Virus record (IMG/VR): IMGVR_UViG_3300021142_000006
Length of the DNA stretch: 64,000 nt
Source of the DNA: a virus
Taxonomy: Duplodnaviria > Heunggongvirae > Uroviricota > Caudoviricetes
Strand: one strand, 5' to 3'
Program-made: the position numbers and the translations under genes
In this document: piece after piece, positions 7,650-46,666 of the stretch
Position numbering within the stretch: the first letter of the stretch is position 1
Layout of the letters: each line of letters starts with the position of its first letter
Notes under the pieces: generated by a model
Told to the model about the DNA's origin: nothing
Databases searched by the model: none
Seen by the model: only the letters and a program-made list of their open reading frames with translations

Positions 7650-8180
7650 ATGACAAAAAATTTAGAGGTTGTGACCTTTTTTGATTTTGATGGTTGTCTT
7701 TTTTCAACACCTTTACCTGAAACTGGTAAAGATATATATCAACAAGTTACAGGTAAACCATATCCTCATATAGGTTGGTGGAGTAAACCTGAATCACTTG
7801 ATATGGATATATTCGATATTAGACCAAAATCTGGTATGGAAGAAGTATATCGTAATGTTATGAAAAACCCAGAGGCACATGCTGTTCTACTTACAAATAG
7901 ACAATATAAATTGGGTGATGAAGTTAAAAAAGTATTGGATAGTCATAATATGACATTTGAACATTATTCTTATAAACATAATGATCATGAGAAGGGTGAC
8001 AGAATGTTGGAAATAATGAAAAAATACTATTCTGGTGTTAAAAATATTGTATTCTATGATGATGACCAAAAACACCTTGATAATGCTGAAATGGTATTAG
8101 CTGGTAAAGATTATAATCTTAAAACAGTTAAAATATCTTCAGATTTAGATTACCTTGATCAAAGCGATAAAATTAAGTAA
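7650..8180 (+). CDS. HAD-family phosphatase (Swiss-Army-Knife RNA-repair type)
   Basis: FFDFDGCLFSTP motif I, GWW, LLTNR, FYDDD. Confidence 0.75.
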   Translation: MTKNLEVVTFFDFDGCLFSTPLPETGKDIYQQVTGKPYPHIGWWSKPESLDMDIFDIRPKSGMEEVYRNVMKNPEAHAVLLTNRQYKLGDEVKKVLDSHNMTFEHYSYKHNDHEKGDRMLEIMKKYYSGVKNIVFYDDDQKHLDNAEMVLAGKDYNLKTVKISSDLDYLDQSDKIK

Positions 8181-8235
8181 TTTTGGGTTTATTTTTTATT
8201 GAACCATAGTTATATTTAAAGAAAAAAATATAATT

Positions 8236-9282
8236 ATGGTTCAATTTATTAAAACAGCATTGGTCTTAGGTGGCGGAGGTTTCATTGGAGGACATATTGC
8301 AAAAAAATTAAAATCTGAAGGTTATTGGGTAAGAGTTGTTGATATAAAAGAACATGAATATTTCATGGGTTCACCAGATTTCTGTGATGAATTTATTGTT
8401 GGTGATTTAAGAGACCCTAAAGTGGTTTCAAAAGTTATGTTTTCACCAAATCAAAGGTCTTTAGATGATAAAGAAAATTCCTTTGATGAGGTTTATCAGT
8501 TAGCTGCCGACATGGGTGGTGCTGGTTATATTTTTACTGGCGCAAATGACGCTAATGTTATGCATAACTCAGCCTTGATAAATTTGAATGTTGCTTATGA
8601 TGCTGTAAAATATAACGTAAAACGAGTATTTTACTCATCATCTGCATGTATGTATCCTGAACATAATCAATTAGACCCAAATAACCCAAATTGTGAGGAA
8701 TCATCGGCCTATCCAGCAAATCCTGATTCTGAATATGGTTGGGAAAAACTATTCTCTGAAAGACTTTATTTGGCCTTTAATAGAAATTATAATCTTGATG
8801 TTAGAATTGCAAGATTCCATAACATTTTTGGGCCTTATGGTACCTGGAAAGGTGGAAAAGAAAAAGCGCCAGCCGCAATGTGTAGAAAGGCTGCTGAAAC
8901 ACCTAATGGCGGTATAATCGAAGTTTGGGGTGATGGTCAACAAACAAGATCATTCCTTTATATTGATGAGTGTGTTGAAGCTGTATTCAGATTTATGCGC
9001 CAAGATTCCTTCTTAGGACCTGTTAATATAGGTTCAGATGAAATGGTAACTATTAATGATTTAGCTCAAATGGCTATAGACGCTTCTGGTAAAGATATTA
9101 CAATAAGTAATATATATGGTGAGGAATTTGAATCCAAATATGGTTTTAAATGTCCAACTGGTGTAAGAGGTAGGAATTCAGATAATAAATTATTCCAAGA
9201 AAAAATGGATTGGGTTCCATCATTCCCATTACGTGCAGGTATAATAAAAACATATAATTGGATAAATACACAGGTTAAATAA
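8236..9282 (+). CDS. NAD-dependent epimerase/dehydratase (GDP-mannose 3,5-epimerase-like)
   Basis: GGGGFIG, LAADMGGAG, YSSSACMYP, YGWEK, RFHNIFGP, KAPAAMCRK. Confidence 0.9.
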   Translation: MVQFIKTALVLGGGGFIGGHIAKKLKSEGYWVRVVDIKEHEYFMGSPDFCDEFIVGDLRDPKVVSKVMFSPNQRSLDDKENSFDEVYQLAADMGGAGYIFTGANDANVMHNSALINLNVAYDAVKYNVKRVFYSSSACMYPEHNQLDPNNPNCEESSAYPANPDSEYGWEKLFSERLYLAFNRNYNLDVRIARFHNIFGPYGTWKGGKEKAPAAMCRKAAETPNGGIIEVWGDGQQTRSFLYIDECVEAVFRFMRQDSFLGPVNIGSDEMVTINDLAQMAIDASGKDITISNIYGEEFESKYGFKCPTGVRGRNSDNKLFQEKMDWVPSFPLRAGIIKTYNWINTQVK

Positions 9283-25812: not shown

Positions 25813-25828
25813 TGAAATATAAATTATG

Positions 25829-25900
25829 TGGCTCGTACCAGGATCGAACTGGTGACTCTGGAGTTTAGAATTCCGAATGTTGCCGCTACACCAACGAGCC
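25829..25900 (-). tRNA. amber suppressor tRNA (anticodon CUA); amino-acid identity unknown
   Basis: GGCUCGU/ACGAGCC, GUGU/ACAU D stem, CGGAA-UUCUAAA-CUCCA, 5-nt variable loop, ACCAG-UUCGAUC-CUGGU; canonical spacing puts CUA at 34-36; only 3 of 5 anticodon-stem pairs. Confidence 0.78.
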
Positions 25901-25908
25901 TGATCTGA

Positions 25909-26238
25909 TTACATCAATCGTGAACCAGGATTACCCATTAAATCAAGAGTATCACCACTTGACGGCACCATTATCATCGCAGATGACATTATACCCATAA
26001 TTTTAGCTGGTTCAAGATTTGTTATAAAAGGATAAACCGAATTTACAAGTTCATTACAATCAATTCTGTTACCGATGTTTGTCATTACTGTTCTAACATC
26101 TTCATTTCCGAAGTTCACAGTTAACTTTAACATCTTATCACTTTTTTCCACTTTTTCTGCGGACGTGATTTCACCTAACAATATTTCAACTTTATCACTA
26201 AGTTCCTTGTAAGTATTGAAGTCTATATTTTTTTTCAT
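25909..26238 (-). CDS. tRNA-binding OB-fold protein (Trbp111/CsaA/MetRS C-terminal-like)
   Basis: GEITSAEKVEKSDKMLKLTVNFG...TNLEPAKIMGIMSSAMI. Confidence 0.85.
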   Translation of the reverse strand: MKKNIDFNTYKELSDKVEILLGEITSAEKVEKSDKMLKLTVNFGNEDVRTVMTNIGNRIDCNELVNSVYPFITNLEPAKIMGIMSSAMIMVPSSGDTLDLMGNPGSRLM

Positions 26239-26257
26239 ATATTTAATTTAAATTTAG

Positions 26258-26330
26258 AGTACATGGATGGATTCGAACCACCGAATTGATACTTTGCAGG
26301 CACCTGCCTTAACCACTCGACCACATGTAC
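26258..26330 (-). tRNA. tRNA-Cys(GCA)
   Basis: GUACAUG/CAUGUAC, U73, loop CUGCAAA. Confidence 0.9.
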
Positions 26331-26387: not shown

Positions 26388-26678
26388 TTATTGTTCAACT
26401 TTTCTTTTATTTTTTTGTTTTGCTTTCCAACCACGCTCAACACGAGCTTTATCCCTACGTTTTTTCCATCTTCTATCAAACCAATAAGAACCAAGCTCAT
26501 TGCTTATTTCTTTATCTAATTGAACTATTTTATCAAATAGTTCAATCTTTTGAGCATCAGTCAAAGGTGTTGGTTTATTTCTCCATTTATCCCTGTTTTT
26601 CATTGGGGTTGGATTAAGTAATCTGTGTACAGCATTACTGAATTTAGATTTGATCATTTCTGTTTTAGAGTTTTTCAT
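26388..26678 (-). CDS. basic hypothetical protein
   Basis: 96-aa Lys/Arg-rich ORF. Confidence 0.6.
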   Translation of the reverse strand: MKNSKTEMIKSKFSNAVHRLLNPTPMKNRDKWRNKPTPLTDAQKIELFDKIVQLDKEISNELGSYWFDRRWKKRRDKARVERGWKAKQKNKRKVEQ

Positions 26679-26917
26679 TGTTAAAAATTTTAGCGATTAT
26701 TAAATTATTTTCTGTTATTATTTTAAGACTTGCTTTGAATTTTATAGAACCCTTTGTACTTGGATTGTAATCCAACACCAGGTTCTACATCAACATGATG
26801 AACATAATAAGTATCGCCTCGACATTTAACAACCCACATAGGTACAGTAGGATCTTCGAGATGTTTCTTGTTAAAATGGAACGTAATTGGTTCCTTTCTT
26901 TCTGTAATCTACAACAT
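26665..26917 (-). pseudogene. amber-interrupted (codon 3) and frameshifted small gene (FHFNKKHLEDP protein)
   Basis: ATG TTG TAG ATT then ITERKEPITFHFNKKHLEDPTVPMWVVK..VEPGVG; plausible coding continues in another frame (NPSTKGSIKFKASLKII...) to 26665. Confidence 0.6.
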
Positions 26918-26928
26918 AGTTTTTAATT

Positions 26929-27282
26929 TTAATGTGACATAATTTTATTGTTTTTATATTCCTTTAATGCTAAAGGCAATGAAGACGTAACTTTGGAAGC
27001 CTCTTTAGAGCCTTCAAAAGCAATTGCGGTCATTTGATGACCAATATCAGGTTCGGTGAAATAAGAGACGGCTATGCCTCGCTCTTCTAACTTATTGTAT
27101 AATTTATGTAGCTTTTCTTCATTTTCAATGGATAAACAGATTAGAAAGTTATTATTCCATTGATTTGCTCGTTCTGGATGTTCCAAGAAGAACTGAGCTA
27201 AGGCATGTCCACTCTGGCTCATCTGTAAGCCAGGATCAATATCTTTTCGTGTTACGACAATTAATTTGTTAATCTACAACAT
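26929..27282 (-). CDS. peptidyl-tRNA hydrolase type 2 (Pth2-like) with in-frame TAG at codon 3
   Basis: ML*INKLIVVTRKDIDPGLQMSQSGHALAQF...FTEPDIGHQMTAIAF; the KLxVVxRxD..G.Q..Q..HA catalytic motif begins upstream of the Met called by the ORF track. Confidence 0.82.
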
Positions 27283-27354
27283 GATAATTTTTTTTTCGTT
27301 CTAATAATATATAGTGTAAAAGTATGAAGAAATTTTGAAAAAACAAAACTTTTT

Positions 27355-45338: not shown

Positions 45339-45461
45339 TCATCCTGGATGGATTCGAACCACCGACACACAGTTCTACATATAAAATTTTCACTGCGGAA
45401 CACATTCTCATCAGAATGCTCTTTTTTTTTACCGTTGCTCTACCAACTGAGCTACAGGATG
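45339..45461 (-). ncRNA. tRNA scaffold (Phe-like body) with 57 nt in place of the anticodon loop
   Basis: CAUCCUG/CAGGAUG, GCUC/GAGC, ACGGU/ACUGU, GGUGG-UUCGAAU-CCAUC all intact. Confidence 0.75.
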
Positions 45462-46545: not shown

Positions 46546-46666
46546 AGCTGACGGATAGAATCGAACCACCGACTCTGGCTTGGAATGCATATAACTGTTA
46601 ATTGCGGTATGGAATCTCATCAGATTCACTTGTTTTAACAGCGTGTTACCATTACACTACATCAGC
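46546..46666 (-). ncRNA. tRNA-Gly(UCC)-like scaffold with a ~50-nt anticodon insert
   Basis: GCUGAUG/CGUCAGC, U73; residual UUCCAA-GCCAG 3' anticodon half; insert hairpin GAAUCU-GAUG-AGAUUC. Confidence 0.75.

Follow-up and report, generated by a model that had tools for sequence, protein, structure and literature searches.

How can a gene be expressed when its third codon is a stop codon? This question is raised by a 64,000-nucleotide stretch of DNA from a virus of the class Caudoviricetes (IMG/VR record IMGVR_UViG_3300021142_000006; "the window" denotes this whole stretch), with a guanine-plus-cytosine (GC) content of ~30% and 28 tRNA genes. On its minus strand a gene for a Pth2-like peptidyl-tRNA hydrolase and the gene that follows it (gene 2) both open with ATG-TTG-TAG-ATT, and a preliminary description based on the letters alone proposed that the amber codon is either read through or followed by re-initiation at AUU. 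Our comparison of this locus with its relatives suggested that translation probably starts at the ATG and that the phage's own suppressor tRNA would have to read the UAG. Judged from sequence, this module of UAG-bearing genes and tRNA is a new, widespread form of phage gene expression in which suppressor-tRNA-dependent read-through is predicted.

Amber codons at the start of two phage genes

The features on which the argument rests are as follows.

26929..27282, minus strand: Pth2-like peptidyl-tRNA hydrolase gene, 117 codons including the stop, with UAG as codon 3
27274..27276, minus strand: in-frame amber codon 3 of the Pth2-like gene, next base A (TAG-ATT)
26723..26917, minus strand: gene 2, small conserved protein, predicted all-beta, with UAG as codon 3 and a broken frame
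26909..26911, minus strand: in-frame amber codon 3 of gene 2 (TAG-ATT)
25828..25900, minus strand: amber-suppressor-type tRNA with anticodon CUA, U33 and A37 (ARAGORN; Rfam tRNA, 46.2 bits)

The Pth2-like gene begins with ATG (27282-27280), TTG, TAG (27276-27274) and ATT (27273-27271), and the frame past TAG-ATT is unbroken into INKLIVVTRKD...SGHA (INKLIVVTRKDIDPGLQMSQSGHA) and on to the stop at 26929, which confirmed the earlier claim that it continues into the catalytic motif. Gene 2, whose ATG lies 12 bases past the Pth2-like stop, begins in the same way with ATG (26917-26915), TTG, TAG (26911-26909) and ATT (26908-26906), then ITERKEPITFHFNKKHL. The exact 12-mer was found at these two sites only when both strands of the 64 kb were scanned, and a looser pattern (ATGNNNTAGATT) returned the same two sites only within the window, so that the identical opening of two adjacent genes stands as first described. 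Both TAGs were reproduced with zero differences in contigs of another public run (X18) and the feature recurs in dozens of independent assemblies; a sequencing error is thereby excluded, in line with the earlier judgment that it is unlikely. DNA of the window is also present in runs of at least 17 freshwater studies, and the contigs of a single RNA run cover only window positions 25882-26053. A blastn search of GenBank phages with a 1.6-kb region of the window gave no match.

The first gene had been named as Pth2, and two comparisons bear this out. Pfam PTH2 (PF01981) matched the window protein above its curated threshold (27.9 bits against a cut-off of 23, E 2.9e-6), with residues 6-103 aligned to profile positions 2-113 of 115, and a profile of 14 homologues matched the solved Methanocaldococcus Pth2 (PDB 2zv3) over its full length (E 1.3e-7). 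On these matches the window protein belongs to the Pth2 family, and peptidyl-tRNA hydrolase activity is predicted for it. A K/R before L-x-V-V and the motif E77-P78-D79 are conserved in the family; HMMER puts E77, not D79, on the Pth2 Asp, and the G-K motif is replaced by G-Y-Q. With archaeal and eukaryotic Pth2 (PF01981; 2zv3, 1q7s/Bit1, 1wn2 and 1xty) the phage proteins share a common fold family by Pfam and profile comparison, the phage N-terminal strand K-L-x-V-V-x-R-x-D-L and the acidic residue of the E-P-D motif being aligned with the Pth2 core. They differ in forming a divergent phage clade, with G-Y-Q in place of G-K-G-K and a W-N-N-N motif.

The family is large, with 2,748 clusters at 50% identity matching its profile. 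Among the best 150 family representatives, 45 open with M-x(0-4)-Q, and this Q is a TAG in the DNA of all five M-x(0-4)-Q database proteins whose DNA was retrievable. Phage-like DNA is the sole setting in which this clade turned up; a pattern scan of 185,579 species-representative bacterial and archaeal genomes found no relative of it. Locus searches with the single distant family members P0139, P0160 and P0151 returned no loci, and the wide family alignment A6 was too diverse for such searches.

Relatives were drawn from IMG/VR, Joint Genome Institute (JGI) metagenomes, contigs encoding database homologues and GenBank phages, and a census table of 42 loci was compiled (loci are cited by L numbers). 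All 42 Pth2-like genes carry an in-frame TAG at codon 3, 4 or 5, in 29 distinct start strings such as ATG AAA TAG ATT, ATG AAA TAG ATA, ATG AAA CAA CAT TAG GTA, ATG AAA AAC TAC TAG ATT, ATG GTG AAT TAG AGA and ATG ACG TAG AAC. Gene 2 is present in 28 census loci and has a TAG at codon 2 or 3 in every one, its shortest opening being a bare ATG TAG ACA in L003. When the phages added beyond the census are included, an early TAG (codon 2-5) was seen in every Pth2-like homologue with a readable start.

Little else around this codon is constant. One to four residues precede the TAG and 1-6 codons separate it from the first conserved strand; because these lengths vary on both sides, the TAG lies in an otherwise freely changing stretch. 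The last codon before it may be AAA, AAG, TTG, TTA, ATG, CAT, AAT, AAC, TAC, TAT, ATT, CAC, ACT, ACA, ACG, TCG or AGA. The conserved pattern consists of a start codon, 0-3 sense codons, TAG and a purine, and nothing else. Of the 29 census start strings, 28 have A directly behind TAG and one has G; outside the census, G occupies this position in four mycobacteriophages and A in all the remaining phages that were added. The suggested check of whether the Met-Leu-stop-Ile opening is conserved in homologues gave a divided answer, since the TAG is invariant in every homologue read and the surrounding codons are variable. The identical 12-mer was also considered as a DNA signal or motif and rejected, only TAG and the purine being conserved across relatives.

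Evolutionary rates gave further evidence. The ratio of nonsynonymous to synonymous divergence (dN/dS) of the post-TAG frame is 0.05-0.22 at a synonymous divergence (dS) of 1.0-3.5, which is saturated, and it is 0.13-0.22 between the Pth2-like gene of the window and its relatives. Since dS is saturated and dN/dS is low, the post-TAG frame appears to be translated, and the TAG appears to be kept by selection and not by lack of time for its loss. In addition, many orthologues have no in-frame ATG, GTG or TTG ahead of the catalytic core, and in L001 the first Met lies 95 codons downstream of the TAG. The locus L028 (P0092), which was sought as a TAG-less control, has ATG ACG TAG just upstream of its called ATG. 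In L021 (8957-10285; ENA NODE_6, 346,738 bp) a DUF723-type homing-endonuclease-like gene interrupts the Pth2-like gene behind '...AQSG'. The original 5' end (ATG AGA TAG ATA CAC...) is left abandoned upstream of it, a complete replacement copy (ATG GTG AAT TAG) comes after the endonuclease gene, and both the abandoned end and the copy bear the TAG.

Cultured and huge phages displayed the same opening. A tblastn search of GenBank phages returned 232 records, 206 of them cluster C mycobacteriophages, in which the gene is annotated 'peptidyl tRNA hydrolase'. Four of the latter were checked for the TAG: the start reads GGAGGC GTG TAG GTG in Myrna and Phabba, AGGGGC GTG TAG GTG in ScoobyDoobyDoo and GAAGGC ATG TAG GTG in Catera, and the annotated start of all four is the GTG after the TAG. 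Among huge uncultured phages, LR756501 has ATG TCG TAG ATT behind AAGGAG, LR756500 has ATG AAG TAG ATT, LR756504 has ATG ACA TAG ATT and LR745206 has ATG AAC AAT TAG ATT. For Lak-B1 no TAG was found within 20 codons upstream, and the gene start could not be placed.

Both Xanthomonas phage XacN1 and Stenotrophomonas phage RAS14 encode a protein of ~270 residues that has the Pth2-like domain at its C-terminal end. These two phages were tried as TAG-free controls and rejected as such when it emerged that the fusion gene truly opens with ATG AAG TAG ACC, before the start that is annotated: this string lies four codons ahead of the annotated ATG in XacN1 (L060 2946-2960) and upstream of the annotated GTG in RAS14 (L059 2941-3014), where the annotation cuts off the conserved N-terminus. 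The conserved N-terminal residues of the fusions (Q-x-ILQHGLSV) precede the annotated start in RAS14 and lie immediately ahead of it in XacN1, and the annotated starts of both HD-like/Pth2-like fusions are probably wrong. Because the TAG of XacN1 and RAS14 is at the 5' end of the fusion, it goes with the beginning of translation and not with the Pth2 domain.

The companion tRNA and neighbouring genes

The tRNA(CUA) of the window is encoded on the same strand as the Pth2-like gene and ~1 kb downstream of it. In all 36 census loci with enough flank, ARAGORN detected a same-strand tRNA(CUA) no more than 3 kb away, the call in L001 being made by Rfam and by eye. The 29 distinct tRNA(CUA) sequences of the relatives have diverse stems with compensatory changes and an invariant (C/U)U-CUA-A. 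The cloverleaf with anticodon CUA, U33 and a purine at position 37 is that of an amber suppressor tRNA, and its charging and its decoding of UAG are predicted. The tRNA bodies seem to be of more than one type: those of L021, L029 and LR756504 have U1-A72 and G73, which by the identity rules of E. coli are typical of bacterial tRNA-Gln, and the main group combines a Trp-like anticodon arm with a Gln-like D arm. The D loops are ordinary and contain GG, the variable loop has 5 nt and the T loop reads TTCGA, whereas tRNA-Pyl is marked by a short D loop, a variable loop of 3 nt and a long anticodon stem. An assignment to tRNA-Pyl, which is the label given by ARAGORN, was rejected in view of this ordinary architecture, the label reflecting the CUA anticodon only (pyl genes were not searched for).

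Beyond the census, the tRNA(CUA) lies 130-250 nt downstream of the Pth2-like gene in the mycobacteriophages, and LR756501 has two copies 2.1 kb downstream. XacN1 carries four copies in its terminal repeats and RAS14 has one copy far from the gene. The public records label the tRNA as Ser in Myrna (L055 3466-3537), as Arg in Catera (L056 3605-3678) and as Arg(tct) in Phabba (L063 3465-3535); for all three, ARAGORN gave the anticodon CUA in a 7-nt loop closed by a C-C mismatch, so that these labels are wrong. The orthologous tRNA is named tRNA-Pyl(cta) in the ScoobyDoobyDoo record. A Gln-like tRNA of LR756504 (L080 546-621, at ~281 kb) with the GGGAUUCUAACCCC arm was given a four-base 'tcta' anticodon in an 8-nt loop, and the same arm was called CUA by ARAGORN in L021 and L029; we treated the 'tcta' call as an ambiguity of loop register. 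Quadruplet reading of UAGA by this tRNA was rejected, because the +1 frame closes Pth2 at once.

Other features of the locus are listed below.

27317..27347, minus strand: putative promoter-like element of Bacteroidota type, read by eye, with TTTG (27347-27344), 19 nt and TACTTTTA (27324-27317)
26665..26778, minus strand: out-of-frame remainder of gene 2, conserved C-terminal part (NPSTKGSIKFK...IIAKIF)
26388..26678, minus strand: gene 3, 96-aa basic protein with a plain ATG start, syntenic in relatives
26257..26330, minus strand: tRNA-Cys(GCA), found immediately before tRNA(CUA) in many relatives
25909..26238, minus strand: tRNA-binding-domain protein, Trbp111/CsaA-like (Pfam PF01588, E 2.3e-16)

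Gene 2 of the window has a 20-bp deletion relative to all relatives, which is also present in contigs of another run. The missing bases correspond to CTCAACCAAAGAAACTCCAG and fall inside the otherwise invariant FSTKETPDNPH motif (window 26723-26800, minus strand). Owing to this deletion the frame shifts and ends early, being lost after ~49 residues. The earlier description of the second gene was right about its ATG-TTG-TAG-ATT start and needs one correction, namely that the frame of this gene is broken. In the window, gene 2 has probably become a pseudogene recently while retaining the ATG TTG TAG start. Intact orthologues have 84-89 aa and are 73-93% identical to that of L001. The AlphaFold (AF2) model of gene 2, with a predicted local distance difference test (pLDDT) score of 80.6, had no informative fold match in PDB and the AFDB clusters, and no family was assigned to the protein; gene 3 had no Pfam match.

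Between the putative promoter box and the Pth2-like ATG is an A-rich leader of ~34 nt. In relatives, a promoter-like TTTG/TTG-N19-20-TAnnTTTG sits nearer the Pth2-like ATG than in the window. In L001-L012 a TTG(AC)-N17-20-TAnnTTT(G/A) box ~50 nt upstream of the ATG ends 4-9 nt before it, and the Pth2-like mRNA of these loci may be leaderless or almost so; unlike them, the window and the L014/L030 group have leaders of ~20-34 nt. A sigma-70 reading of the upstream boxes as -35 and -10 was replaced by the Bacteroidota TTTG/TAnnTTTG reading.

Many neighbouring genes are related to tRNA and translation. A tRNA-Cys(GCA) 5-8 nt upstream of tRNA(CUA) forms a conserved pair (e.g., L004 1332-1483, L017 1270-1421, L023 1452-1607 and L024 6084-6234), into which the tRNA-binding-protein gene intervenes in the window; the latter gene is also near the module in L019-L021. 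SmpB is encoded directly upstream of the Pth2-like gene in L024, genes for transfer-messenger RNA (tmRNA) are present in L019 and L024, and L001 has an SmpB-like open reading frame (ORF); the SmpB and tmRNA sites, the latter with long tags, are L001 9606-10040, L024 4579-5010 and 10776-11193, and L019 6824-7225. No tmRNA was detected in the window by ARAGORN or by Rfam at the gathering threshold. Other genes near the module encode an RNA ligase, Thg1 and an aminoacyl-tRNA-synthetase-like protein. L001, an IMG/VR relative, also contains a full-length GOLLD RNA (7982-8388; Rfam RF02032, 281.6 bits) among tRNA genes 2 kb downstream of the module, and none was found in the window at threshold. Three Rfam tRNA matches of 114-123 nt uncalled by ARAGORN, at window 45339-45461 and 46546-46666 (minus strand) and L001 4706-4819, may be tRNA genes with insertions or introns.

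Read-through and its alternatives

The early TAG could be explained in several other ways. Genome-wide reassignment of TAG (code 15, as in crAss-like and Lak phages), with the two genes as mere examples, would fit the tRNA(CUA), the low GC content and the rarity of TAG as a stop, which ends 3 of 65 long ORFs in the window and 15 of 171 genes in G002, a complete 203-kb IMG/VR relative assembled from 11 stretches; some gene callers even translated these genes with TAG as Q. However, no in-frame TAG was found in any other plausible gene of the 64-kb window, nor elsewhere in the 203-kb relative or the other loci. The coding density of that relative is unchanged when TAG is read as sense (0.903, against 0.898 under code 11), large genes of 1916 and 628 aa in it, and another of 448 aa, end in TAG, and the Pth2-like gene is its only early-TAG gene lacking a later ATG. 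Genome-wide recoding is contradicted by these data for the DNA examined and is a very unlikely account; the standard code elsewhere in the window had been correctly described. Sequencing error or decay by nonsense mutation has a negligible probability: the window gene 2 is truly damaged by its deletion, but the TAG recurs across independent runs and assemblies as well as in finished genomes of cultured phages, and purifying selection downstream of it is strong. It is also extremely unlikely that the tRNA(CUA) is of initiator type and the UAG a real start codon. Initiator tRNAs engineered to carry CUA are able to begin translation at UAG, and the TAG never lies far from the 5' end; against this, an in-frame ATG or GTG is always 1-4 codons upstream with no intervening stop, and the tRNAs have a paired 1-72 end and are without three consecutive G-C pairs in the anticodon stem. 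Ribosome hopping was rejected as no consistent take-off or landing codons were seen, and so was a T-box-like contact of tRNA and mRNA, as there is no structured leader.

More of the data would suit a mini upstream ORF, in which ribosomes terminate at UAG and restart at the adjacent AUU, AUA, AUG or GUG, the nearby tRNA(CUA) being incidental. Coupled genes often have a stop directly next to a start. Most lineages have ATT as the codon that follows TAG; some have ATA, L028 has ATG, and the four mycobacteriophages have GTG, which is their annotated start and is ~7 nt from GGAGG or GAAGG. The codon in this position, however, is ACA in L002, L003, L016, L019 and L038, AGA in L021 and L041, AAC in L029 and L042, GTA in L010 and ACC in XacN1 and RAS14; several of the genes concerned also lack any start codon ahead of the conserved residues. 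Because ACA, ACC, AGA, AAC and GTA are unusable as starts, re-initiation at AUU is contradicted as a general mechanism. A mini upstream ORF further leaves unexplained why the stop is always TAG and never TAA or TGA, though TAA ends ~80% of genes in these AT-rich genomes, and why tRNA(CUA) is its constant company; we consider it quite unlikely. A combined mode, in which weak basal initiation at AUU, AUA or GUG after the TAG is boosted by the suppressor as a graded dial with no on/off gate, would unite the predominance of A/G-U-N after TAG with the tRNA linkage. It suits the mycobacteriophages best, with their GTG at the right Shine-Dalgarno distance, but the ACA, ACC, AGA and AAC exceptions count here too, and this mode is rather unlikely. 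Of the two routes first proposed, read-through was favored by the invariant TAG, purifying selection and the company of tRNA(CUA), and re-initiation failed on the codons named above.

Several observations weigh against read-through by the phage tRNA. The window tRNA(CUA) has two anticodon-stem mismatches and that of L001 is also weak, so suppression may be inefficient. LR756504 (~635 kb) has no tRNA(CUA) within 25 kb, its CUA-type tRNA being 100 kb away, and in LR745206 (~635 kb) none was found within 25 kb or by a limited, non-exhaustive pattern search. The mycobacteriophage and L028 proteins could arise without suppression, since GTG or ATG follows the TAG at a good Shine-Dalgarno distance. 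All loci may be descended from one ancestral module, in which case the locus counts are not independent events. Finally, the purpose of the gating is conjecture.

If the phage suppressor reads the UAG, as we prefer, expression might proceed as follows. Ribosomes would initiate at the ATG (GTG in some mycobacteriophages) and reach the UAG after one to four residues. In the absence of a cognate tRNA, termination or drop-off with a tiny peptide would follow. Once the phage tRNA(CUA) had been made, processed and charged, an amino acid would be inserted in the variable N-terminal tail and the enzyme would be made; the small all-beta protein, where present, would be under the same dependence on amber suppression. 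Because nearly all these phages encode an amber-suppressor tRNA, the enzyme seems to be made only with a working phage suppressor, and it might be timed or dosed by suppressor activity. Different suppressor bodies may be tolerated because any amino acid would do in the tail, and read-through would report specifically on the phage tRNA because no host tRNA reads UAG. A 3' purine favors amber suppression, as classical genetics of E. coli and Salmonella established. With the stop at codon 2-5, a failed attempt would cost only a di- to pentapeptide and yield no truncated protein, and short nascent chains may terminate slowly, which would help the tRNA compete.

What the sequences show is the layout of the module, its conservation, purifying selection past the TAG, a standard code elsewhere and the company of tRNA(CUA); charging of the tRNA, its decoding of this UAG, the efficiency of read-through and its purpose are inferred. 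The enzyme belongs to translation maintenance, as do SmpB, tmRNA and the other neighbours named above. The likeliest purpose would be to couple peptidyl-tRNA recycling or rescue to the timing and degree of phage tRNA and suppressor activity. A further idea, unlikely but worth considering, is that the UAG is a sensor of the phage translation apparatus, the enzyme taking part in the switch from host to phage tRNAs or acting on the suppressor tRNA itself. If the latter were true, a feedback loop would control how much suppression occurs while TAG continues to serve the phage as a stop.

Comparison with known systems

To our knowledge, suppressor tRNAs of standard-code phages have no known target and are commonly regarded as forerunners of full recoding. 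The predicted module would give them a concrete, testable client, and if read-through holds, standard-code phages from at least three bacterial phyla would share one enzyme as the conserved client of their suppressor tRNAs. Its reach covers freshwater phages with Bacteroidota-type promoters, huge uncultured phages, more than 200 cluster C mycobacteriophages (four of them checked) and the jumbo phages of Xanthomonas and Stenotrophomonas. The findings also bear on public annotations, which misplace the gene start after the TAG in Myrna, Phabba, ScoobyDoobyDoo, Catera and XacN1 and truncate the gene in RAS14. In addition, the module may offer a natural, minimal tRNA-gated translational switch that is testable in cultured phages. 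Full-text searches found no paper connecting a phage Pth gene with either an amber codon or a suppressor tRNA, though coverage of the literature was incomplete and novelty is unproven.

The leader of these genes may bring to mind the bar minigenes of phage lambda (AUG-AUA-stop), which cause peptidyl-tRNA drop-off in pth-defective E. coli. Both have a very short ORF at the 5' end and a thematic tie to peptidyl-tRNA hydrolase. The bar minigene, however, stands alone: it has two codons, the last of them specific, and no gene continues downstream in its frame. With its 1-4 codons, its variable last codon and a conserved ORF that continues in frame, the leader described here is not a minigene of this type, and its stop is always UAG. 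The link to minigene drop-off that was first proposed is attractive but unsupported, and the further proposal that the genes sense RF1 availability or compromised termination is speculative.

A closer parallel in logic is the bldA tRNA-Leu(UAA) of Streptomyces, a rare tRNA that gates a few TTA-containing genes such as adpA (PMC10732093). In both systems a dedicated tRNA decides, or is predicted to decide, the translation of a handful of genes, which amounts to regulation and not to a change of code. The bldA system uses a rare sense codon and serves cellular development, whereas the module uses a stop codon and a phage suppressor, and its client is concerned with the maintenance of translation.

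In gut phages with suppressor tRNAs, in-frame UAG codons have been proposed to delay certain genes until the tRNA is made (10.1101/2021.08.26.457843; PMC9523058). The word 'hydrolase' is absent from the former gut-phage recoding paper (10.1101/2021.08.26.457843), alongside which PMC9523058 is cited here. The phages of our study resemble the crAss-like, Lak and other recoded gut phages in having their own tRNA(CUA), a standard-code host, a low GC content and a preference for TAA stops. The recoded gut phages have many late structural and lysis genes with many in-frame stops; applying code 11 makes their coding density collapse, and they have given up TAG as a stop. In contrast, TAG still ends genes in the phages that carry the module, one or two small genes have a single UAG within their first five codons, and these UAG-bearing genes adjoin the tRNA that is predicted to read them.

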